NCBI GenBank assembly: GCA_963804955.1
Contig: CAWDSQ010000024.1
Span: 128,001-192,000 of the forward strand
From: an uncultured delta proteobacterium
GTDB lineage: Bacteria; Desulfobacterota; WTBG01; CAIYCZ01; CAIRTM01
DNA: 64,000 nucleotides
Direction: 5' to 3'
Numbering within the stretch: position 1 is the stretch's first letter; each line of letters starts with the position of its first letter. Below the pieces are notes generated by a model. The model saw nothing but the letters and a program-made list of their open reading frames with translations, made no database searches and was not told the origin of the DNA. The position numbers and the translations under genes were made by a program. Of this stretch, positions 10,155 through 40,263 are shown piece after piece.

Positions 10155-10703
10155 TCAGCCGGGAAACTGTTCGGCATAGCGCTCTCGCCTGAAATGCCTG
10201 CCATGGGCTTCAATTATGGTTGCCAGAGCATGGCACCCCACATACATGCTGAAAGCCTGGCTATTGAGCATGTCCAGAGCAGGAAGACCATGAAAAAGGG
10301 TTTTGCGCATCCTGTGGAGAATGATCAGTAGAGCTAAAACCGTTGATTCAAAATCGGATTTTTTTCCGCACACAACAGCTTCAACAAACTCTTTCTGGCT
10401 TTTCGAATGGAAGCGCAGGATTTTAAAATGCGGGGTAAAGCCCGTTGTTTCGTAATAGCGTTTTTGATAGTACGTGAAGATGCGCTCCAGCTCGGCCCGG
10501 CATCTGCGCCTCTTGACTATTTCAACTGCCAGCTCTTCGAAAATGTTCATATCGGCATGAGAGCTGCACAGCAAACCCTCAAAGACATGCCACATGACTG
10601 TGAAATTTTCTACGGCGTTGAGTGTATCCGGAGTGAAATATGTTGCTGAAGGCACATTTGCAGTAATCCATTCTTTTGCCGAAAAAGTAGAAAAATCAGG
10701 CAC
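10155..10703 (-). CDS. Hypothetical helical protein with a HEPN-like R-x4-HG motif
   Basis: AAGGAG RBS and GTG start; F..MW..FE N-terminal helix and HRMRKTLFHG. Confidence 0.6.
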   Translation of the reverse strand: MPDFSTFSAKEWITANVPSATYFTPDTLNAVENFTVMWHVFEGLLCSSHADMNIFEELAVEIVKRRRCRAELERIFTYYQKRYYETTGFTPHFKILRFHSKSQKEFVEAVVCGKKSDFESTVLALLIILHRMRKTLFHGLPALDMLNSQAFSMYVGCHALATIIEAHGRHFRRERYAEQFPG

Positions 10704-26779: not shown

Positions 26780-27073
26780 GGCAAATGAGAGGGATAGTGC
26801 CCTGGACAGCGGACCTGATCCGACACATGAAGATGCGCCCTGTCAACTCAATAAACTTCTCCCTTTCTGATCAGGGCAATTTGCCAACTGCCCTGATCCC
26901 GCCTTTATTGATGTATGTATGGACGCCCCCCACGTTCAACTCTTTGTGTATTGCGCGGCATTCAGAATATATGCTATTGTTTGCTGAATTATTACTGCAT
27001 GCACGGATGGCCCGTATGGGCCTCCACACAGGCAGTGCCATGCGCACCTGATCCGTGTCAGGAAAAAATCGAT

Positions 27074-29290
27074 ATGTCAATTTCTATTAAAGAAAAGGAA
27101 CTCTCCATGCTTTATTCGAAAAACAATCTTGAACATGGCTATGCCAATAAGATCCTCAGTATCGATCTGGGGAAGGATGATATCCGCGTAAAAGATCTCG
27201 ATCCGGTTGTCAGGGATTATTTTCTTGGCGGCCGCGGTCTGGGGCTGTACCTGCTCTATCGCCATATCAGTCCCACGACCAGGGCCGCTGATCCTGAAAA
27301 CCCCCTGATCCTCTCGCCCGGTCCACTGGGAGGCGTCCCGCAGTTCCCGGGCACGGCCAAATGCATGGCCATTTCTCTTTCTCCCCTGACCGGGATACCC
27401 GGTGCTTCCAATTTCGGCGGGCATTTCGGGGCGTACCTGAAATATGCAGGCTTTGATGCCATGGAAATCACCGGCAAGGCCGGCCGTGATGTCATGATTG
27501 TCATTAACGCCTTCAAGGGTGAAATCACCATCGAGCCGGCCCCGGCTGTTGATCAGGTATTTGCCCTGGAGCAGGAGCTGGTTGCAAGGTTTACCGGGCA
27601 GGGCTACGACCGCAAAGACATGGTTTTTCTCACCACCGGCATTGGCGCGGCGCGCACGAAGTATGGCTGCATCAACAGCCATTATTATGACCCGACCAAG
27701 CCGGTGAATGGCTCCAAAGGGCTTTTCCGCGTCAAGCAGGCGGGCCGCACCGGCCTGGGAACCGTGATGATCGACAAGTCTGTCCGCACCATTGTAATCC
27801 TGTCGCACTATCCCAAGGGCGATAACCCCTACGGCGCAGCGGACTGGGACAAAGTCAAACAGGCCGGTCAAAAGCTCAACCAAGTCGTCCATGAGGTCGA
27901 TCCGAACTATCTCCAAATGAACCGCAAGGGCAGCGCCGGCCTGATAAGCTTCATGAACAAGGAGGATTATCAGTCGCTTCCGGTGCGCAACTACCAGGCC
28001 GGTTCCGACCCCGAGGCCGGAAAGATTTGCGGGAGCCACTATGCCGAGCACCTGTTCGAGCATGGCGGCAACGACGGCTGTTTCCCGGGCTGCAGCCTCA
28101 GGTGCACCAAGGGCGGCTGGACCACCCTGCAATCCGGTGCGGGAAAAGGGCGCAAGGTCTGGGTCGACGGCCCGGAATATGAAACCGCCGCGGGATTCGG
28201 CTCAAACCTCGGCATCTTCAGTCCGCAGTTCATCATGGAGGCCAACTGGCAATGCGATGACTACGGTTTCGACACCATCACCCTGGCGGTGATCATGGCC
28301 TTTATCATGGAGTGTTTCCAGCGCGGCTACCTGACCCGGGATGACGGGCAGGGTCTGGAGCTGACCTTTGGCGACGAAGCCGCGGCGCTCGCGTTCATCC
28401 ATCAGGTTGCCCGGCATGAGACCGAGCTGGCCCGCCAGGCAGGACTGGGCATGACCAGCCTGATCGAGTGGGTAGCCCGGCGCTGGACCGAGCGTACCGG
28501 CGGCCCGGACCCCCGCCCTGATCTGGCACGCTTTGCCATGCAGACCAAGGGCCTGCCGTTCTCGCTCTATCGCACGCACCGGTCGCTTTCCATGCAGGGC
28601 TCCTATGCCGCTGCCAGCGATATCGGCGCGCACCATGCCGCGGCCTGGCTCATCAAGGTCGATCTGCTGGGGGCTTTCCCGGATTTTCAGTCCAAAGCCA
28701 GGGCGCTGATCACCTATCCGCGGGTGCGGCTGGGCAATGACAATCTGGGGCTCTGCAAATTGCCCTGGGTGGATGTCTTTAATCCGGAGAGCCAGCACAC
28801 GAAAGCTGCGGATAAGCATATCAATCCGGCTTCACAGGAAATCTATGCCGATTTTTTCAACGCCATGCTGGGCACCAGCCTGACCTGGGAGCAGATTTTT
28901 GAGCGCACCGACCGCGACATTAACCTGCAGCGCGTCATGAATGCCGTGATCTTCGGCGAGCAAACGGGCGTGTATGACTGGATTCCGGACCGGGCCATCG
29001 GGCCCACCGATGATGCGCTCTACCAGTCCGAAGCTGCATATAGCGATGCCGACCTGGGCCGTCTGGCCGGGCTGTCTCCTGAGGAGATCAGGCGCATGCC
29101 GGTCACCGAGCGGCGCGTGCGGCTGATGAGCAGCCGCAAGGCCGCGCTAACCGAGCTGATCCAGGCCTACTATGCCGAGCGGGGATGGACTGAAAGCGGC
29201 ATTCCCCGGCCTGCCGTTCTCAAGGAACTTGGCCTCTGGGAATTTCTCAGAGAAGACACCAGGACAAAGATCTCCGCTTTGGCATGCTGA
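27074..29290 (+). CDS. Aldehyde:ferredoxin oxidoreductase (W/Mo-pterin AOR family)
   Basis: LGGRGLG, SPLTG, GGHFG..LKYAGFDA, AGRTGLG, C..GC..RC, GPEYET, CDDYGFDTI. The start may be 27107. Confidence 0.9.
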   Translation: MSISIKEKELSMLYSKNNLEHGYANKILSIDLGKDDIRVKDLDPVVRDYFLGGRGLGLYLLYRHISPTTRAADPENPLILSPGPLGGVPQFPGTAKCMAISLSPLTGIPGASNFGGHFGAYLKYAGFDAMEITGKAGRDVMIVINAFKGEITIEPAPAVDQVFALEQELVARFTGQGYDRKDMVFLTTGIGAARTKYGCINSHYYDPTKPVNGSKGLFRVKQAGRTGLGTVMIDKSVRTIVILSHYPKGDNPYGAADWDKVKQAGQKLNQVVHEVDPNYLQMNRKGSAGLISFMNKEDYQSLPVRNYQAGSDPEAGKICGSHYAEHLFEHGGNDGCFPGCSLRCTKGGWTTLQSGAGKGRKVWVDGPEYETAAGFGSNLGIFSPQFIMEANWQCDDYGFDTITLAVIMAFIMECFQRGYLTRDDGQGLELTFGDEAAALAFIHQVARHETELARQAGLGMTSLIEWVARRWTERTGGPDPRPDLARFAMQTKGLPFSLYRTHRSLSMQGSYAAASDIGAHHAAAWLIKVDLLGAFPDFQSKARALITYPRVRLGNDNLGLCKLPWVDVFNPESQHTKAADKHINPASQEIYADFFNAMLGTSLTWEQIFERTDRDINLQRVMNAVIFGEQTGVYDWIPDRAIGPTDDALYQSEAAYSDADLGRLAGLSPEEIRRMPVTERRVRLMSSRKAALTELIQAYYAERGWTESGIPRPAVLKELGLWEFLREDTRTKISALAC

Positions 29291-33062: not shown

Positions 33063-34241
33063 GTGAATCGAAATGATGAAAAACTTGAAGTGAGGAAACT
33101 TACAGTAGAGTTAGCCCTTGCCAATAAAGAACTTGCTCTTCAAAAAGAAGAGAAGAGAAAACGGGCAGCAGAGTTAGTCATTGCCAACAAAGAACTTGCT
33201 CTTCAGAAAGAAGAAAAAAGAAAACGGGCAGCAGAGTTAGTCATTGCCAACAAAGAACTTGCTTTTCAGAACGAAGAGAAAAGAAAAACGGGCAACAGAG
33301 TTAGTCATTGCCAACAAAGAACTTGCTTTTCAGAATGAAGAGAAAGAAAAACGGGCAGCAGAGTTAGTCATTGCCAACAAAGAACTTGCTTTTCAAAATG
33401 AAGAGAAAGAAAAACGGGCAGCAGAGTTAGTCATTGCCAACAAAGAACTTGCTTTTCAGAAACGAAGAGAAAGAAAAACGGGCAGCAGAATTAGTCATTG
33501 CCAACAAAGAACTTGCTTTTCAAAACGAAGAGAAAGAAAAACGGGCAGCAGAATTAGTCATTGCCAACAAAGAACTTGCTTTTCAGAACTGAAGAGAAAG
33601 AAAAACGGGCAGCAGAGTTAGTCCTTGCCAACAAAGAACTTGCTTTTCAGACTGAAGAGAAGAGAAAACGGGCAGCAGAGTTGGTCCTTGCCGACAAAGA
33701 ACTTGCTCTTCAGTATGACAAGAGAAAAAAAGCAGAGGTATTGGCAACGCATGACCATTTAACAGGATTACCCAATCGAGTCTTGCTCAATGATCGCATC
33801 AATCAATACTTACTTCTAGCCAAGCGAACGAAGACATTGGCAGGTTTGATAACTTTAGACATAGATGGATTCAAACAGATAAATGATACTTATGGACATC
33901 ATATAGGCGATGTCGTTTTAATGTCAATTGCAAAACGATTAACTGAACTAATTCGGGAATCAGACACAATTGCACGTCTTGGAGGAGATGAGTTCATTCT
34001 GCTCGCTACAGAAGCCAAGAGTATGAACGATATCAAGAATCTCGCCAATCGTATTTTGAAGATTGTCCAAAATCCAATTATTGTGGGCAAACAAAAAATT
34101 ATGGTTAAAATTAGTATTGGCATCGCCTGCTATCCATCTAGTGGACAAACAGCCAAGACATTAATGAACAATTCGGATAAAGCCTTATATGCTGCTAAAG
34201 CACAAGGCAAAAACTGCTATGCAATTTGGGGGGTCAAATGA
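33063..34241 (+). CDS. Diguanylate cyclase with an N-terminal 21-aa tandem-repeat coiled coil (three +1 indels in the repeats)
   Basis: HDHLTGLPNR, DIDGFKQINDTYGH, RESD..ARLGGDEF, SIG, ALY.AK..GKN. Confidence 0.9.
33108..33740 (+). repeat. Coding tandem repeat, 10 x 63 bp (ELVIANKELAFQNEEKEKRAA)
   Basis: Units start at 33108, 33171, 33234, 33298, 33361, 33424, 33488, 33551, 33615 and 33678. Confidence 0.95.
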
Positions 34242-34353: not shown

Positions 34354-34439
34354 AGTTCGTAGGGCGGGTGCTAACCCGCCATTTTTAATTCATGATAACC
34401 CTTATCTGACTTATTGCGCGGCGGGTTAGCACCCGCCCT
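34354..34439. repeat. GTAG-type REP doublet (REPIN-like), right arm interrupted by the IS
   Basis: GTAGGGCGGGTGCTAACCCGCC ... GGCGGGTTAGCACCCGCCCT|. Confidence 0.85.
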
Positions 34440-34539
34440 TCTATGAGGACCGTTGTCAAGCCTCGGGTTAATTTTTTTTGTTTTTTTCTTTCTTTATCTT
34501 TTGATACTCATTCCGTTTTGGCCGGTTGGGCTTGTCGTT

Positions 34540-34710
34540 TTCCGGGAACCTTGCCCGGAACCACCTTCTATCCGTGCCGGTATTATAACCGTGCATCCAC
34601 ATACTGCGTGCGCCAATTGGCGTCAGTCCAACCAGTTTAAGAAGCCTTCAATCTACAAAGACGGTGCTTTTAGACCCAGGGCGGGTACGAAGGGCTTCAC
34701 CAACTGGAAT
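34540..34710 (-). ncRNA. Predicted bridge/seek RNA of the IS110 element (boundaries approximate)
   Basis: Guide-like segments match the target (34678-34686, 34653-34657) and the donor junction (34599-34606, 34565-34571) within stem-closed loops. Confidence 0.75.
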
Positions 34711-34745
34711 GCCTATCAAATCCTTTTCCTCCTGTTGTATGTCCT

Positions 34746-35888
34746 TTATGCCATCTTCAGTATCGCGCCTTCCGGCACGATGTCGTGATCAACATACTTC
34801 CACAGCGCTATGAGCAGTTTTCTGGCCAGCGCCACGATCCCTATTCGCCTCATTCGCTTGTTGCCCCCTCCAAAGCGCTCATGAAACCACGTGCTTAGCT
34901 TACTGCCAGGCTGCCATCTCAGCCATCCCCAGGCTAGCTCTATCAGCAAAGCTCGTATCCGCCGATTGCCCGCTTTGCTTATCCCTTGCTCAATCTGCAT
35001 ATCCCCGCTACTGTAGGGCATTGGCGCAAGACCCGCTGCACCTCCCACCTGCTTCACATTCTTGAATTCCCGCCAGCCAAAAAACTCATAGATCAAATCC
35101 CATGAACTGATCGGCCCAATTGCCCGTATCCGGGCAAGCTTGCTTACCTTGCGCATTTGTTCAGGACTTGCCGCAAGCTGCCGCTTCTTTTCCTCTTGTA
35201 TCTGCCTCAGCTGCCGGTCCAGCACCCCTATCCGTTCATACTCCCGCTTCATCTCCTGCACGATATGCTCTGGCAGTTTGCTTCCATCCCAGGCTCGCAC
35301 TTCTTCTAGCAGCTTCAGAAATTTACTGCCTACCTCTGCATGTATCCCATACAATACAAGTAATGACTTTATCCGGCTTACATGTGCTCCCCGTTCCTTT
35401 AACAGCCGATCCCGCTCTCGGTTGAGTCGCCGTTCATCTTCCTGTTCCTGTGTCGGAACCCGTACCACACTCCAGACTTTCTGCTCTCCTCCCAAGTGCC
35501 GTATCAGCATGGTTAACAACTTTAACCCATCTACCCGGTCCGTCTTGGCCCGCCGATGCCGCCGGTTCACTTCGATACTGGCCGAGTCCACCACGATATT
35601 CTTTATCCCTATGCTCTCCAAATACCGATGTATCCAAAACCCGTCTCGTCCCGATTCATAACAGCTGTATATGGCGCAATCTTCATCCAGGCTAAAATGC
35701 TTCCGGGCCTTGACCAGCTCTTCCTTAAACTCTTCAAGATCTGCTGATGTTATTGTTCGCTCCCTCCTGCGTTGCCCGTCCCCAAACGTCAGGTTCCATT
35801 TCTTGTTGGACAGTTCAAGGGATATGTACAAAACCTGCTTACCTGTGCTATTCTTTGCCTCGGTTTGGATCATTTGATTGTTCGCCAT
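34746..35888 (-). CDS. IS110-family recombinase/transposase (intact ORF)
   Basis: SLELS, CYESGRDGFWIHR, RAKTDRVD, GLAP....SG, ISKAGN, ALARKLL. Confidence 0.96.
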   Translation of the reverse strand: MANNQMIQTEAKNSTGKQVLYISLELSNKKWNLTFGDGQRRRERTITSADLEEFKEELVKARKHFSLDEDCAIYSCYESGRDGFWIHRYLESIGIKNIVVDSASIEVNRRHRRAKTDRVDGLKLLTMLIRHLGGEQKVWSVVRVPTQEQEDERRLNRERDRLLKERGAHVSRIKSLLVLYGIHAEVGSKFLKLLEEVRAWDGSKLPEHIVQEMKREYERIGVLDRQLRQIQEEKKRQLAASPEQMRKVSKLARIRAIGPISSWDLIYEFFGWREFKNVKQVGGAAGLAPMPYSSGDMQIEQGISKAGNRRIRALLIELAWGWLRWQPGSKLSTWFHERFGGGNKRMRRIGIVALARKLLIALWKYVDHDIVPEGAILKMA

Positions 35889-35959
35889 GTTTGTCTCCTT
35901 TATGCTGAAAGTTATTGACGTGACTTTTTTAGCATATCCGAGACGTGACGCCTGTCAAA

Positions 35960-36020
35960 TGATCCTTTCCTTCATAGTATCTACCGGCTAATACTTGATC
36001 CTTTCCTTCATAGTATCTAC
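35960..36020. repeat. Direct duplication of the 25-bp IS end, tgatcctttccttcatagtatctac
   Basis: Copies at 35960-35984 and 35996-36020. Confidence 0.92.
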
Positions 36021-36028
36021 AGACTGTT

Positions 36029-36472
36029 TTAATCTTGCGCCAGAACTTTTTTGGCAATCATCCGTTTATAAATCCACTGTGAGATATTAATAAAATAAAC
36101 AGCATTGGCAAAAAGCATGCATGCGGCCAATCCGTTCTGGCCCCAGTTTAACCAGAGCCCGGCAAAATAGAAAATATACGATAAAATAGCCGCCAGATTG
36201 CCAACATCCTCCCAGAAGAATTCACGGCACATGAAATATTTATTATAGAACTGCTTCTCCCAAATTATACCGATTATGGTATTGACCCAAAGCAGCACAA
36301 AATTAATCCAGAAGGTGATCAGCGCGCCGGTCCATCCCTGGCCGGTGAGCAGGACACGCAGCACATAATACAAGCTCATGAATAAAATTAAAATCTGCAC
36401 CCCGCCTATCATCATCATCGCGCGGGTCAGCGGCGACGCGTCCTGCCGGGTCTTTTGTTCTGCTGTATACAT
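36029..36472 (-). CDS. bchF: BchF-like (3-vinyl bacteriochlorophyllide hydratase family) membrane protein
   Basis: MYTAEQ..R.DAS..T, G.IWEKQ...KY....EFFWEDV, Y.IN..Q; AGGAGG RBS. Confidence 0.8.
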   Translation of the reverse strand: MYTAEQKTRQDASPLTRAMMMIGGVQILILFMSLYYVLRVLLTGQGWTGALITFWINFVLLWVNTIIGIIWEKQFYNKYFMCREFFWEDVGNLAAILSYIFYFAGLWLNWGQNGLAACMLFANAVYFINISQWIYKRMIAKKVLAQD

Positions 36473-37026
36473 AAGGACCTCCTGTCGTTTATTTTCCAGT
36501 TCCAAGTTGTTTGGACACGGTTGCTTCGTCATTCATGCCGAACTGCTTTTCAACTCGGCGATATAAGCCGGTTGTTAATGCATTGACTTGATCTGATGTT
36601 CTATGGCCACCCCATACATGCTTAAGATAAAAGACCAGAAATTTCCGGTACAGCTTCATGGGCATGAAACGACGGAGAACGTCACATAGTATAACCTGTT
36701 CAGAACCAGTTGCTTTGAAAAAAAAGCTGGGAAATTCATCTGTTTATTTTGTTCGATCATGCGGTTTATTGCGCTGAACATGCAGCAGGTTCCAAACAAA
36801 ATTATAACAAGGTGTTTAAAAAAATTTGTTTCTTTAAGGAAAGTATAAATTCAACGGCTTTTGCTGTCAATAAAATAGTACATGCGCGTTTACAAATTTT
36901 CAAGCTTTGCATCTTACCAGTTTATCCGTCACAACGTACCCACATATTTTTAAATTTTCACCGTTGCGAAAAATTGCCTGGGAATAAATCGAAAACAGCA
37001 AACAATTTAGCCTCACAGTCCGTCAT

Positions 37027-37113: not shown

Positions 37114-37199
37114 AGTTCGACGGGCGGGTGCTAACCCGCCATTTTTAATTCATGATAACCCTTATCTGACTTATTGCGGCGGGTTAGCACCCGCCCTTC
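37114..37199. repeat. Second copy of the REP doublet, with degenerate GTAG/CTAC ends
   Basis: Near-identical to 34354-34441, including the spacer. Confidence 0.88.
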
Positions 37200-37288: not shown

Positions 37289-38927
37289 CTAACGAACAGT
37301 GCGCGACATATGTATAAGCTGCACGGTATCATTGGCATCAAAAATCATAAAACGCGGTTCCGGTGAGAGCTTTCTTTTTGGCCATACCGTCCACTCCGGC
37401 AGTTCCGGCACGTTCGGATCGCCCGTCCGGGCAAACTGGGCATTATAGGCCATTATGGCATCCGTTAGCGCCTGCCAGCCCGGGCGATTGTCTTCCCGGA
37501 AGATGAGCTTCTCAATACCGTCAAAAACGGGAGAATGACCCGGTAAGGCCGAAATTAAAGGGTATATCAAGGCCGTGGCAGGCCCCGAGTGCCTGGGCCC
37601 AGCTCATTCTATTTGTAGGGCCAATGTCGGTGGGCCAGGCATTATAGCCGAACCTGCGGTACTGGCCGTACTCAAAGATATAGCTGTAGACACCCGGCTG
37701 CGTGTCATGCGCGCTCATTTTGTATGCCAGGGAATCAAGCCCCGTGATGCGGGAAATCTGCGTTCCCTGTTTGCCAATCAACTGATAAAGGCTTTTAGGA
37801 AAAAACTTATACACACCAAACAGATACATGAACAGCTTGCCTTCTTCAGACGTGCTGCCGATGATAATCGGAACCTGGGCATATTTTGCAGGATCGTCAA
37901 AGGCGCCGGCGCCCTCGGCAGGAATGACCGCTCCATCGTTGAAAACATCCGGATTGCCCTTCAGCCCGGAGGTTGCCGAAAAAAAGTCTGCCGTGGTTTT
38001 TGACAGCAGATAGGCCCTGATCCCGGCATTGCTCATGCTCTCCCGCTCAGCGGCTGCCTGGTCCGCAGGCGTTCCATCCTTCACCAGCAGGGCCTCGATG
38101 ACGCTGTTGGCGTATTCTTCGCCCTCTTCCACTGATTTGGGCGCAAGGCCGCCGCTCTGCGATATGACCCGGTGAAAGAGGCCTTTGGCCGGGGGTGAAA
38201 TCATCAGGATCAAGCCATTCACCCCGCCTGCCGACTCTCCGGCAACGGTAATATTGTTCGGGCTGCCGCCGAAGGCCTCGATATTGTCGCGCACCCAGGC
38301 AAGGGCTTTTATGATATCAAGGATGGCAAAATTGCCGGAGCCGCTGAGGGGGTCCCGGCCTTCGCGCAGCGCCGGGTGGGTGAACCATCCCAGGGGGCCA
38401 AGCCGGTAGTTGATGGTAACAACAACCATGTTGTTCCTGCCGGCCAGAGCCGCACTGATGTAGGGGTCGGCAGAGCCGACCTTGTTGCTGCCGCCATGAA
38501 TCCAGAAGTAAACGGGCAGATTTTTCTCTGTTGAGCGCGGCCGCCATATATTCAGATAGAGGCAATCCTCGCTGCCCTTGAGGACGGTTGTGCCATTGTC
38601 AGAAGCGGTTTGCGGGCACCAGCTGCAGAACTCTGTGCTCTGTTTTGTCTCCATCCAGGCATCAGGATCCTGCGGCGCTTGCCAGCGCAGCTCTCCCACC
38701 GGGGGCCGGGCATACGGGATGGCCTTCCAGACCCGGGTTGTATAATTATCTTCAAAGCCCTTAACAGCGCCCCGGTTTGTGGTGACGGTTGCAGTATCCT
38801 CCCATGAAGCTGCTGCATACGCATTCGGGGTCGGACCGCTGCCGCCGTCTGCCTGCATGCCCGGAACAGCCGACAGGGCAAAAAGCAGAGCGGCAAAAAA
38901 AGCTGTTCGCAGGATATGTGTGCTCAT
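37289..38927 (-). CDS. Type-B carboxylesterase, secreted (frameshift near 37540)
   Basis: IPYARPPVGELRW, SEDCLYLNIW, HGGS, NYRLG, GESAGG, ACHGLDIPF, FARTGDPN. Confidence 0.92.
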
Positions 38928-39024: not shown

Positions 39025-39522
39025 TTATTCAACTTCTTTTTCAGGCCGGTACTCTCCAAGCTCCTTGCCGCCGAACTGCGTAATGGTCATCTTGAAAAAA
39101 TTCGAATGTTCGGGGTCCTTCAGGATAGGGCCGAGAAATTTATCTTTCAAGCCAGGCGGAAACATGCCCCGGGCTTCCATCGTGTCGCCGAGTGCCATGA
39201 TCTCCTTCGGGTCGGTAATCTGCGAAAGCTCTCCGTCGAGAATGACGCTCCACCAGCCCCGCCGCCGCGGATCGCCGCCAATCTGAAAGGTATGAAAGAC
39301 CGTAAAGCAGACATTTTTGCAGGTCTTAAAGTAGTTGTACTTTCTGCCGCTCAAGCCCAGGCCGAAGTACAAACCGCCATTATCGTAATGCGTATAGGTG
39401 AGCGGCACGCCATAGGGCCGGCTGCCGTCGGTGAAGCACAATACGCCGTCGCGCTTGGATTTCAGCAGCTCTTCAATTCTCGGCTTTTCCAAAAACAGTG
39501 ATTGTGTTTTAAGCTCTGCCAT
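39025..39522 (-). CDS. Pyridoxamine 5'-phosphate oxidase-like (NimA-type) flavin-binding protein
   Basis: GVLCF....PYGVPL.Y, GRK, VCFTV, WWSVI..G. Confidence 0.85.
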   Translation of the reverse strand: MAELKTQSLFLEKPRIEELLKSKRDGVLCFTDGSRPYGVPLTYTHYDNGGLYFGLGLSGRKYNYFKTCKNVCFTVFHTFQIGGDPRRRGWWSVILDGELSQITDPKEIMALGDTMEARGMFPPGLKDKFLGPILKDPEHSNFFKMTITQFGGKELGEYRPEKEVE

Positions 39523-39630: not shown

Positions 39631-40188
39631 CTACCTGCTTTCCTGTTTCTCCCACACCACATTGCGAAATCCTTTGCGCAGGTCAAGATAGCGTATCTTA
39701 TGCGGTTCAATGGTTATGATATTGAAATTGACATTGTTTACCGCCTGCTCAAGCCCCTGTGCAGCCACGGCCTCTCTGTTGCGGAAATATTTCATGACCT
39801 CCTGCGCCCGGGCCGGATCGTCATTTTTTTTAAACAGCGTTGCGCTGCCCCATACCTGCAGCCCCGAGGCGCTCAGATAGTCTTTTTCGGGATAATACGG
39901 ATCATTGATGGTGTAGGACACGGAAGGATTTTTTTGCATGCTTAAAATCTTGCTGCCCCCTTCGGACAGAATATAGACGGTCAGCCCGTTGTTGAAATAT
40001 TCCAGCGTGGTGCAGCGCGGCTCATTGTCGCGGCAGGTGGCAAGGTTGAGCACATTGTGCGAGCTGATGTAGGCAGCGGCGACTTTTTCAAACTCAGCGG
40101 CAGACATGGCTTCGATAAGATGGATGCCGAACTTTTCGAAGACAGCCTGCTCCTGCCTGTTTGCATGGGGGATTATAAGCTTTGGCAT
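39631..40188 (-). CDS. Pyridoxamine 5'-phosphate oxidase family protein
   Basis: LNLAT...EPRCT.LEY, GG.K....NP.VS, GLQV.G.A. Confidence 0.85.
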   Translation of the reverse strand: MPKLIIPHANRQEQAVFEKFGIHLIEAMSAAEFEKVAAAYISSHNVLNLATCRDNEPRCTTLEYFNNGLTVYILSEGGSKILSMQKNPSVSYTINDPYYPEKDYLSASGLQVWGSATLFKKNDDPARAQEVMKYFRNREAVAAQGLEQAVNNVNFNIITIEPHKIRYLDLRKGFRNVVWEKQESR

Positions 40189-40263
40189 AGCTGAAGACTC
40201 CATAAAAACAGAAATAAAAAAACAGAGGCCGGCATTCAGAAGTCAGAATAGAGAAAATAAAAA

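Follow-up and report, generated by a model that had tools for sequence, protein, structure and literature searches.

A divergent BchF-family gene in a non-phototrophic class of Desulfobacterota, displaced from a conserved gene cluster and now beside an IS110 element

The 64,000-nt stretch of DNA analyzed here (the window; positions 128,001 to 192,000 of contig CAWDSQ010000024.1, assembly GCA_963804955.1, from an uncultured member of the Desulfobacterota) carries a homolog of bchF, the gene for a hydratase of bacteriochlorophyll synthesis. BchF is used as a phototrophy marker. The window gene is a full-length, intact member of the BCHF family (PF07284), and its product belongs to a divergent subfamily that, among the genomes searched, is limited to one small non-phototrophic class of Desulfobacterota; this class shows BCHF-family genes living in non-phototrophs. 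On balance, we read the protein as a BCHF-family member working outside bacteriochlorophyll synthesis, whose predicted role is the hydration of a vinyl group on a tetrapyrrole-type substrate when pigments are processed anaerobically. In relatives of the host the gene sits in a conserved cluster with other genes for the handling of pigments, which points to an undescribed light-independent use of a BchF-type enzyme. The gene and its ribosome-binding site are located as follows:

36029..36472, reverse strand: bchF-like coding sequence, 147 amino acids (aa), four transmembrane helices, member of a divergent non-photosynthetic BCHF subfamily
36478..36483, reverse strand: Shine-Dalgarno sequence AGGAGG, 5 nt before the ATG at 36472, seen directly in the sequence

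The open frame at 36029-36532 on the reverse strand has 167 codons, and the ATG at 36472 was taken as the start. This methionine is common to most of the 51 homologs, which are mostly 143-147 aa long. It is preceded, at a distance of 16 nt, by the stop codon of a truncated upstream frame (the stub listed below), and the same arrangement is found in G004, a genome of the same genus (genomes, contigs and loci are given by our own handles, G000 being the genome of the window). The first-pass annotation, made from the sequence alone, had recognized the gene by three motifs, YTAEQ..R.DAS..T, WEKQ...KY and EFFWEDV, and had proposed a search with a BchF profile. All three motifs are present, and the search gave a significant match to Pfam PF07284, at 91.1 bits (cut-off 25), that covers positions 1-137 of the 139 in the profile, so that the motifs can be regarded as real hallmarks of the family. 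With the NCBIfam model TIGR02020, the BchF equivalog (3-vinyl bacteriochlorophyllide hydratase), the window protein scored 69.3 bits, which is below the cut-off of 101.35.

A search of representative sequences with the window protein returned 164 clusters at E <= 0.001, three of them at 55-70% identity and the next full-length matches at about 35%. When 90 members of the BCHF family, picked from two homolog searches, were scanned with TIGR02020, 14 fell below the cut-off: all 12 proteins of the window clade (58.9-89.2 bits), the divergent P0094 (67.9 bits) and the partial P0053 (99.5 bits). The remaining 76 scored 109-199 bits. The same division appeared in a careful IQ-TREE analysis of 64 rows, from which the frameshifted G016 copy, the fused P0107, the partial P0152 and the very long P0094 were omitted. 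The 30 canonical rows, a label partly anchored by a Bradyrhizobium BchF cluster, a protein from a Chloroflexota metagenome-assembled genome and BchF-BchN read-through proteins, made up one side of a branch that had an ultrafast bootstrap support of 100 and an approximate likelihood-ratio (SH-aLRT) support of 93 and was recovered in 100% of 200 bootstrap trees. The window protein was placed on the other side, in a clade of 12 rows supported at 100/100. The phylogeny suggested in the first-pass annotation thus puts it outside the canonical BchF clade.

Two grades of BCHF proteins can be delineated within the class. Seven copies score 52-89 bits with TIGR02020, and four copies (G018, G013 twice and G006; loci L005, L006, L015 and L007), which keep W15, K57 and H99, score 116-128 bits. 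Copies of both grades all fall outside the canonical clade in the careful tree. Since the latter four exceed the cut-off, "equivalog-grade" BchF occurs in genomes without photosynthesis genes, and as a consequence automatic annotation will name these proteins 2-vinyl bacteriochlorophyllide hydratase and metagenome surveys will call bacteriochlorophyll synthesis where there is none.

The residues were compared in an alignment of 56 sequences. Seven columns are invariant (G68, W71, E72, D89, Y126, N129 and Q132), and the window protein has all seven. Among the 20 columns that are at least 90% conserved in both the canonical group and the window clade it keeps 19, R10Q being the exception. Fourteen columns are fixed in each group and differ between them, namely (canonical residue first) W15L, V18A, Q19M, S53T, K57N, I64N, M65T, L80F, F81M, A82C, S92N, V95A, H99Y and R138M. 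One of these switches had been noticed at first sight as the replacement of the His that follows the WED motif; indeed, the canonical His (27 of 30 sequences) aligns with Y99 of the window protein. The missing His is, however, a weaker argument than was then assumed, because the canonical proteins also vary at this position: three of them have Gln instead, and the His is therefore not essential to the family.

An AlphaFold2 model built on this alignment (mean local confidence, pLDDT, 93.3; predicted template-modeling score, pTM, 0.85) has a short N-terminal helix followed by long helices at residues 14-43, 47-76, 83-107 and 112-146. With four long helices in the model and hydropathy peaks over helices 1-3, the product is a small integral membrane protein. 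In the model the invariant polar residues are turned toward one membrane face, with W71-E72 closing helix 2, E88-D89 opening helix 3 and Y126/N129/Q132 on helix 4, and the N-terminal helix with the Y-T...R...T residues is on the same face. The basic N- and C-termini suggest, by the positive-inside rule, that this face would be cytoplasmic. Foldseek comparison of the model with the PDB gave no match at E <= 0.001, a profile search of the PDB sequences gave no hits, and a search of the ESM Atlas from which the PF07284 clusters were excluded gave no usable match. A wide VIA-align comparison reached at best a Z score of 11, with designed or generic four-helix bundles and with helices of oxidase subunit III and CcsBA; these candidates were set aside, being below the value of about 13 that is meaningful for helical bundles.

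The genome of the window (4.26 Mb in 36 contigs, 87% complete, 2% contaminated) has one BCHF gene. Its class is represented in the collection by 42 genomes, 21 of which are at least 90% complete, and profile searches detected BCHF in 11 of the 42. Within the genus of the window's genome the family is missing from three of the four other genomes. In an even sample of the phylum, 5 of 401 genomes were above the BCHF cut-off, four of them belonging to the window's class and the fifth being marginal at 25.3 bits; outside the class BCHF was found in about one of roughly 380 genomes.

As one of two explanations for a bchF gene in such an organism, the first-pass annotation had offered phototrophy genes located elsewhere in the genome, and had proposed to screen for them. 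The screen did not support this explanation. Profile searches of the window's genome, with its 87% completeness, yielded no match to Photo_RC, BchY or BchH. Throughout the class, reaction centers of type II (Photo_RC) and of type I (PsaA/PsaB) were found in none of the 42 genomes, and BchY was above the cut-off in none, six genomes having weak matches of 18-39 bits compared with a cut-off of 425. BchC, BchN and BchG were each below the cut-off or absent in all five BCHF carriers searched for them (G000, G010, G016, G030 and G018). Among the scanned proteins of the window no other bch, puf or crt genes turned up, in agreement with the first inspection. The host is an oxygen-avoiding, non-phototrophic sediment bacterium. 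What is abundant in the class is the bilin-reductase-like family Fe_bilin_red (PF05996), which is expanded in 32 of the 42 genomes with 6-22 matches each. The window's genome has 10, on contigs C7, C13, C14, C22 and C32. All 11 BCHF carriers belong to lineages with this expansion, and family f3 (8 genomes) has neither of the two gene families.

In G010 and G016, two genomes of one genus, the BchF-like gene lies in the conserved cluster among co-directional genes. These encode, in order, a MarR regulator, an unassigned membrane protein (about 260-320 aa), a NapH-like polyferredoxin membrane protein of 530 aa, a tungsten-type AOR-family oxidoreductase, a signal-peptide protein of 470-515 aa that weakly matches ferrochelatase, a flavodoxin-like protein, a FrhB-family protein of 405-419 aa, the BchF-like protein itself and then one or two more exported flavodoxin-like proteins. 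Both FrhB domains are present in the FrhB-family neighbor, whose alignments with proteins of Chlorobiales, Chlorobium and Chloroherpetonaceae cover about 95% of its length at 52-59% identity; several of its Chlorobiales matches were automatically named BciB by JGI. BciB is described as an FAD/Fe-S enzyme that is fed by ferredoxin and is often annotated as frhB (PMC4836224). The likeness to BciB, the ferredoxin-dependent 8-vinyl reductase of Chloroherpeton thalassium, was established through identity to Chlorobiales proteins and not to a named characterized BciB; unlike BciB, the neighbor occurs in a non-phototroph, and the copy in the window's genome, on contig C30, is interrupted.

BciB-like genes are present in 14 of the 42 genomes of the class, which include 7 of the 11 BCHF carriers and 7 of the 31 non-carriers. 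Ten further BciB-like loci were inspected, each with flanks of 1.5 kb, and at three of them the gene was in the same type of cluster, beside ferrochelatase-like and flavodoxin-like genes (G006), an AOR gene (G023) or two flavodoxin-like genes (G007). In G030, G034 and G036 the BchF-like gene borders on MarR or occupies the MarR end of the same cluster, and on its other side there are genes for a 241-aa membrane protein, a secreted protein and a CrtI-family oxidoreductase. A Fe_bilin_red gene is found 4 kb from the BchF-like gene in G030 and G036. The gene order in G013 is AOR, BchF-like, DUF169, and in G018 an AOR gene is 0.5 kb away. Altogether, the fetched flanks of the 11 BchF-like loci contained AOR at six loci, flavodoxin-like genes at four and MarR at four. 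A gene for a 342-aa radical SAM protein was also seen directly upstream of the BchF-like gene and on the same strand in G036 (locus L023, 778-1806, forward strand); it is not there in the sister genome G030.

The window's genome retains the cluster in another place, without the BchF-like gene. On contig C5 (approximately 102.6-116 kb) there are genes for MarR, membrane proteins, AOR, the ferrochelatase-like protein and two flavodoxin-like proteins, followed by a PAS histidine kinase and FeoB. In G004 the BchF-like gene, whose product is 80% identical to that of the window at the aa level, follows the gene for a 259-aa membrane protein and is upstream of the stretch of flavodoxin-like, kinase and FeoB genes that corresponds to C5. 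A remnant of the same membrane-protein gene precedes the window gene. Its region is 72% identical at the nt level to positions 10271-10472 of the G004 locus L021 (203 bp), the stub itself is 47% identical over 60 residues to the C-terminus of the 259-aa protein, and a stop codon is found further upstream. These data show that the window gene was removed from the conserved cluster by an IS110-associated rearrangement, which left it isolated beside a stub of the gene that used to precede it. The word "orphan" in the first-pass annotation is consequently true for this genome, and not for the relatives, in which the gene has its place in the cluster. The features involved are:

36489..36665, reverse strand: 58-codon stub, 3' remnant of the membrane-protein gene (259 aa in G004) that precedes the bchF-like gene
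34419..35984, reverse strand: IS110-family insertion sequence (IS) with a transposase at 34746-35888 (NF033542, 171 bits, cut-off 140)
35996..36020, forward strand: solo right end of the IS110 element (its terminal 25 nt, copied exactly), 8 nt beyond the bchF-like stop codon
37114..37199, forward strand: repeat of the 65 nt that flank the IS on the left and of the first 23 nt of the IS, bracketing the segment together with the first copy at 34354-34441
36842..36870, reverse strand: candidate sigma-70-like promoter TTGACA-17-TATACT (11/12) from a consensus scan, possibly a replacement promoter

The candidate promoter is weak, because the scan gave five sites and 3.8 were expected in shuffled sequences. 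The right flank of the segment, with a carboxylesterase gene, is 87-94% identical in the three genus members without BCHF (G001-G003). A clean empty site, sought by synteny in these three genomes, was not found, the esterase flank being kept and the left neighbor differing in each. Two pyridoxamine-phosphate-oxidase-like (split-barrel flavin) genes at 39025-39522 and 39631-40203 on the reverse strand are 2.5-4 kb from the bchF-like gene; as they are conserved beside the esterase in G001, they are part of the native flank and not of the inserted segment. An AOR-family protein of unusual length (791 aa, extended at its N-terminus) is encoded 7 kb away at 26915-29290 on the forward strand, and its nearness may be due to chance since the bchF-like segment was inserted secondarily.

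That the gene adjoins an IS had been noted already, and the family match identifies the element as IS110. There are four near-identical copies in the genome, including one on C7 and two on C30, with 98-99% identity and common ends. The solo right end next to the bchF-like gene is the only one in the genome, and the complete element begins 11 nt further on. The repeats at 34354-34441 and 37114-37199 enclose the IS, the bchF-like gene and the stub. These are the repeats that the first-pass annotation described as doublets of repetitive extragenic palindromic (REP) elements. They do exist; they are, however, not members of a genome-wide REP family. The 88-nt unit is found only in these two places in the 4.26-Mb assembly and finishes with 23 nt that form the left end of IS110, so the repeats are derived from the IS end. 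Together with a rearranged 301-bp remnant on C7 (252705-253056) and an inverted left-end hairpin pair on C33 (121-185), this solo right end beside the complete element (window 35960-36025) points to repeated IS110 activity. No single simple event that accounts for the solo copies of the IS ends could be derived.

Four public DNA runs, the best-matching of which contained 0.20 of the sampled words, gave no contigs bridging the junctions and short contigs only, from IS110 relatives and from three pieces of the gene or the stub. Metagenome contigs cover 36055-36205, 36279-36429 and 36495-36603, all in the gene or the stub, with 1-3 differences each, and others end at 34418-34420 and 35982-35989, matching the boundaries of the IS. 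In run X2 a contig of low support connects 34287 with 37219 through 26 other letters and has 23 nt on its shorter side; it may be the empty site of a relative, and was left unused as too weak. Both the carboxylesterase gene (window 37289-38927, reverse strand) and the C5 AOR gene (105569-107381) are split into two overlapping frames, and this suggests frameshifting or indel errors of a kind common in this assembly.

Pairwise ratios of nonsynonymous to synonymous substitution rates (dN/dS) among six copies (15 pairs) were 0.12-0.41, indicating that the subfamily is under purifying selection, and the value for the window and G004 copies was 0.16 at a dS of 0.76.

The window protein can be set against several known systems. 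In a description of the family, BchF is a hydratase integral to the membrane that accepts a broad range of substrates, and its characterized members act on the 3-vinyl group of chlorins (PMC7242693). Compared with BchF of Rhodobacter and Chlorobaculum, the window protein is of the same Pfam family over its full length, is similar in size and membrane character, has the seven invariant residues and keeps the YT..Q..R..T, WEK and FFWED motifs. It differs by its score below the equivalog cut-off (69.3 vs. 101.35 bits), its position outside the canonical clade, the 14 fixed differences and the non-phototroph host, in which the gene has no photosynthesis gene cluster around it, no bchC or bchXYZ partner and no reaction-center genes. 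BchF was considered exclusive to bacteriochlorophyll a producers by Cardona (PMC4783071). There is a precedent for altered substrate or stereo-preference in BchV and the third BchF paralog of brown green sulfur bacteria, the latter described in the same source as being of unknown function (PMC7242693); these proteins occur in phototrophs, in bacteriochlorophyll c/e synthesis, and are set beside the window protein by description only.

The only report on BchF homologs of non-phototrophs found in the literature searched is a preprint on Candidatus "Anaeropigmentia" (Desulfobacterota) by Murphy et al. (bioRxiv 10.1101/2021.03.22.436540). It describes bchF and bciB homologs, counted among bacteriochlorophyll genes, in a Desulfobacterota class without reaction centers and also lists bchXYZ, chlLNB, bchE and bchC, which are read as a near-complete bacteriochlorophyll a pathway or a relic of phototrophy, and a lost phototrophic ancestry is discussed (10.1101/2021.03.22.436540). 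The case resembles ours in the phylum, in the presence of bch-type genes including bchF and bciB and in the lack of a reaction center. It differs, as far as that text goes, in that BchY, BchN, BchC, BchG and BchH were not found above the cut-off here. The split into subfamilies, the residue switches and the cluster of genes are described nowhere in the literature searched, which did not extend to the supplements of the preprint, where genes may be listed. In the pre-PcyA papers a term search gave no mention of BchF.

The second explanation in the first-pass annotation, a repurposed vinyl-tetrapyrrole hydratase, is the better of the two. It agrees with the separate position in the tree, the residue switches of the subfamily and the linkage to BciB-like, ferrochelatase-like and bilin-reductase-like genes, and its substrate part is a prediction. 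Hydratase chemistry is probably retained, as the invariant core of the sequence is intact. The substrate would be a vinyl-bearing tetrapyrrole-type pigment, given that all characterized relatives act as hydratases on the 3-vinyl group of chlorins and show broad tolerance in doing so, and that the linked genes are homologous to those of a chlorin vinyl reductase, a metal chelatase and bilin reductases. In such a reaction water would be added, as by BchF and without a cofactor, across the vinyl double bond of a membrane-soluble substrate to give a 1-hydroxyethyl group, and the 14 fixed switches (among them W15L, Q19M, K57N, I64N, A82C and H99Y) may retune the substrate pocket. To judge from the context in relatives, the substrate could be derived from chlorophyll, heme or bilins. 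Putative partners are the BciB-like protein as a ferredoxin-dependent vinyl reductase, the exported ferrochelatase-like and flavodoxin-like proteins and an AOR/NapH-like electron module. It is possible, although we do not consider it probable, that these proteins (BchF-like, BciB-like, exported ferrochelatase-like and AOR/polyferredoxin) form, together with the 6-22 bilin-reductase-like paralogs, an oxygen-free route for dismantling or reusing chlorophyll- or heme-derived pigments of the sediment, in which hydration and ferredoxin-driven vinyl reduction would replace oxygenase chemistry.

Several observations weigh against a tetrapyrrole hydratase. A BciB-like gene is missing from four of the 11 BCHF carriers and present in seven of the 31 non-carriers, the BciB-like and BchF-like genes are directly adjacent in one genus only (G010 and G016), and the gene-family counts, coming from related genomes, are not phylogenetically independent across the class. 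Where the active site lies and how the protein is oriented in the membrane were deduced from conservation and charge. The model resembles no solved structure beyond generic helical bundles, so far as structural comparison can tell, and these comparisons are uninformative on function. The CrtI-like desaturase among the neighbors in genus g14 fits a carotenoid or isoprenoid substrate too, and this leads to the main rival, according to which the protein hydrates the C=C bond of a non-tetrapyrrole lipid (a carotenoid, a quinone or another isoprenoid) and the tetrapyrrole-type neighbors are coincidental. The CrtI-family oxidoreductase is near the gene in G030, G036 and G034 (TIGR02734, 128 bits, below the cut-off), pocket-type residues are among the 14 fixed switches, and AOR, the commonest neighbor (6 of 11 loci), has to our knowledge no known tetrapyrrole role. 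We nevertheless find this rival unlikely. The tightest linkage of the BchF-like gene is with a close homolog of BciB, a chlorin vinyl enzyme, and with the ferrochelatase-like protein, all carriers are in lineages with expanded bilin-reductase-like families, and the characterized family members all act on the 3-vinyl group of chlorins (PMC7242693).

Other points against the favored hydratase reading concern the window copy itself, which might be a stranded and decaying leftover that was cut from its operon by IS activity and has no function in this genome. Such an origin would fit the displacement of the gene, the truncated upstream partner, the adjoining IS and the lack of BCHF in three of the four other genomes of the genus. 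Position 10, an Arg in the 55 other sequences of the alignment, is a Gln in the window protein alone, and in the trees the protein sits on a terminal branch of 0.19-0.25, against 0.06-0.16 for its sisters, a two- to fourfold difference in length. In addition, the only BciB-like gene of the genome (C30, approximately 149038-150228) is spread over three frames with in-frame TAA and TGA codons, being either a pseudogene or a product of assembly indels. If it is a pseudogene, the pathway may be decaying in this genome; sequencing indels are an alternative cause, since frameshifts are also found in the C5 AOR gene and in the adjoining esterase. Loss of function, the second rival, is in our opinion slightly less probable still than a lipid substrate. 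The reading frame is intact and has a strong ribosome-binding site, although other genes of the assembly show frameshifts, and all the invariant residues are kept. The low dN/dS toward G004 speaks for constraint as well, yet it is averaged over the whole divergence.

The idea that the gene is a genuine BchF from a cryptic phototroph, with the photosynthesis genes left out of the bin, or else that it is a contaminant or a chimeric join at the IS, appears very improbable. It could draw on the incomplete genome, on the four-copy repeat that the gene abuts, where assemblers can mis-join, and on the junctions, across which no read or contig was found in public runs. Against it stand the absence of reaction centers and BchY from all 42 genomes of the class, half of which (21) are at least 90% complete, as well as the equivalog score and the tree position of the protein. 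A foreign origin or a mis-join is also at odds with the closest genome copy being in the same genus (G004), with the right flank shared with three genus members and with the same 65-nt flank being found on both sides of the segment.

In the Treibs scheme geochemists attribute vinyl-to-ethyl conversion and demetallation to the early diagenesis of chlorophyll. If the oxygen-free route existed, it would be an enzymatic counterpart to these steps. We know of no enzymes for the processing of vinyl side chains as a step of carbon turnover in anoxic sediments; the proposed function, if true, would offer a first handle on how the vinyl side chains of chlorophyll- or heme-type pigments are processed without oxygen, and the BchF-like, BciB-like and ferrochelatase-like genes would be a defined set for expression and assay.

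Further to the left in the window, before the IS, a long array of coiled-coil repeats of about 21 residues (motif ...AAELVIANKELAFQ...) is read in three overlapping frames, representing either a frameshifted array or an assembly collapse, and it precedes the GGDEF domain of a diguanylate cyclase encoded at 33063-34241 on the forward strand.

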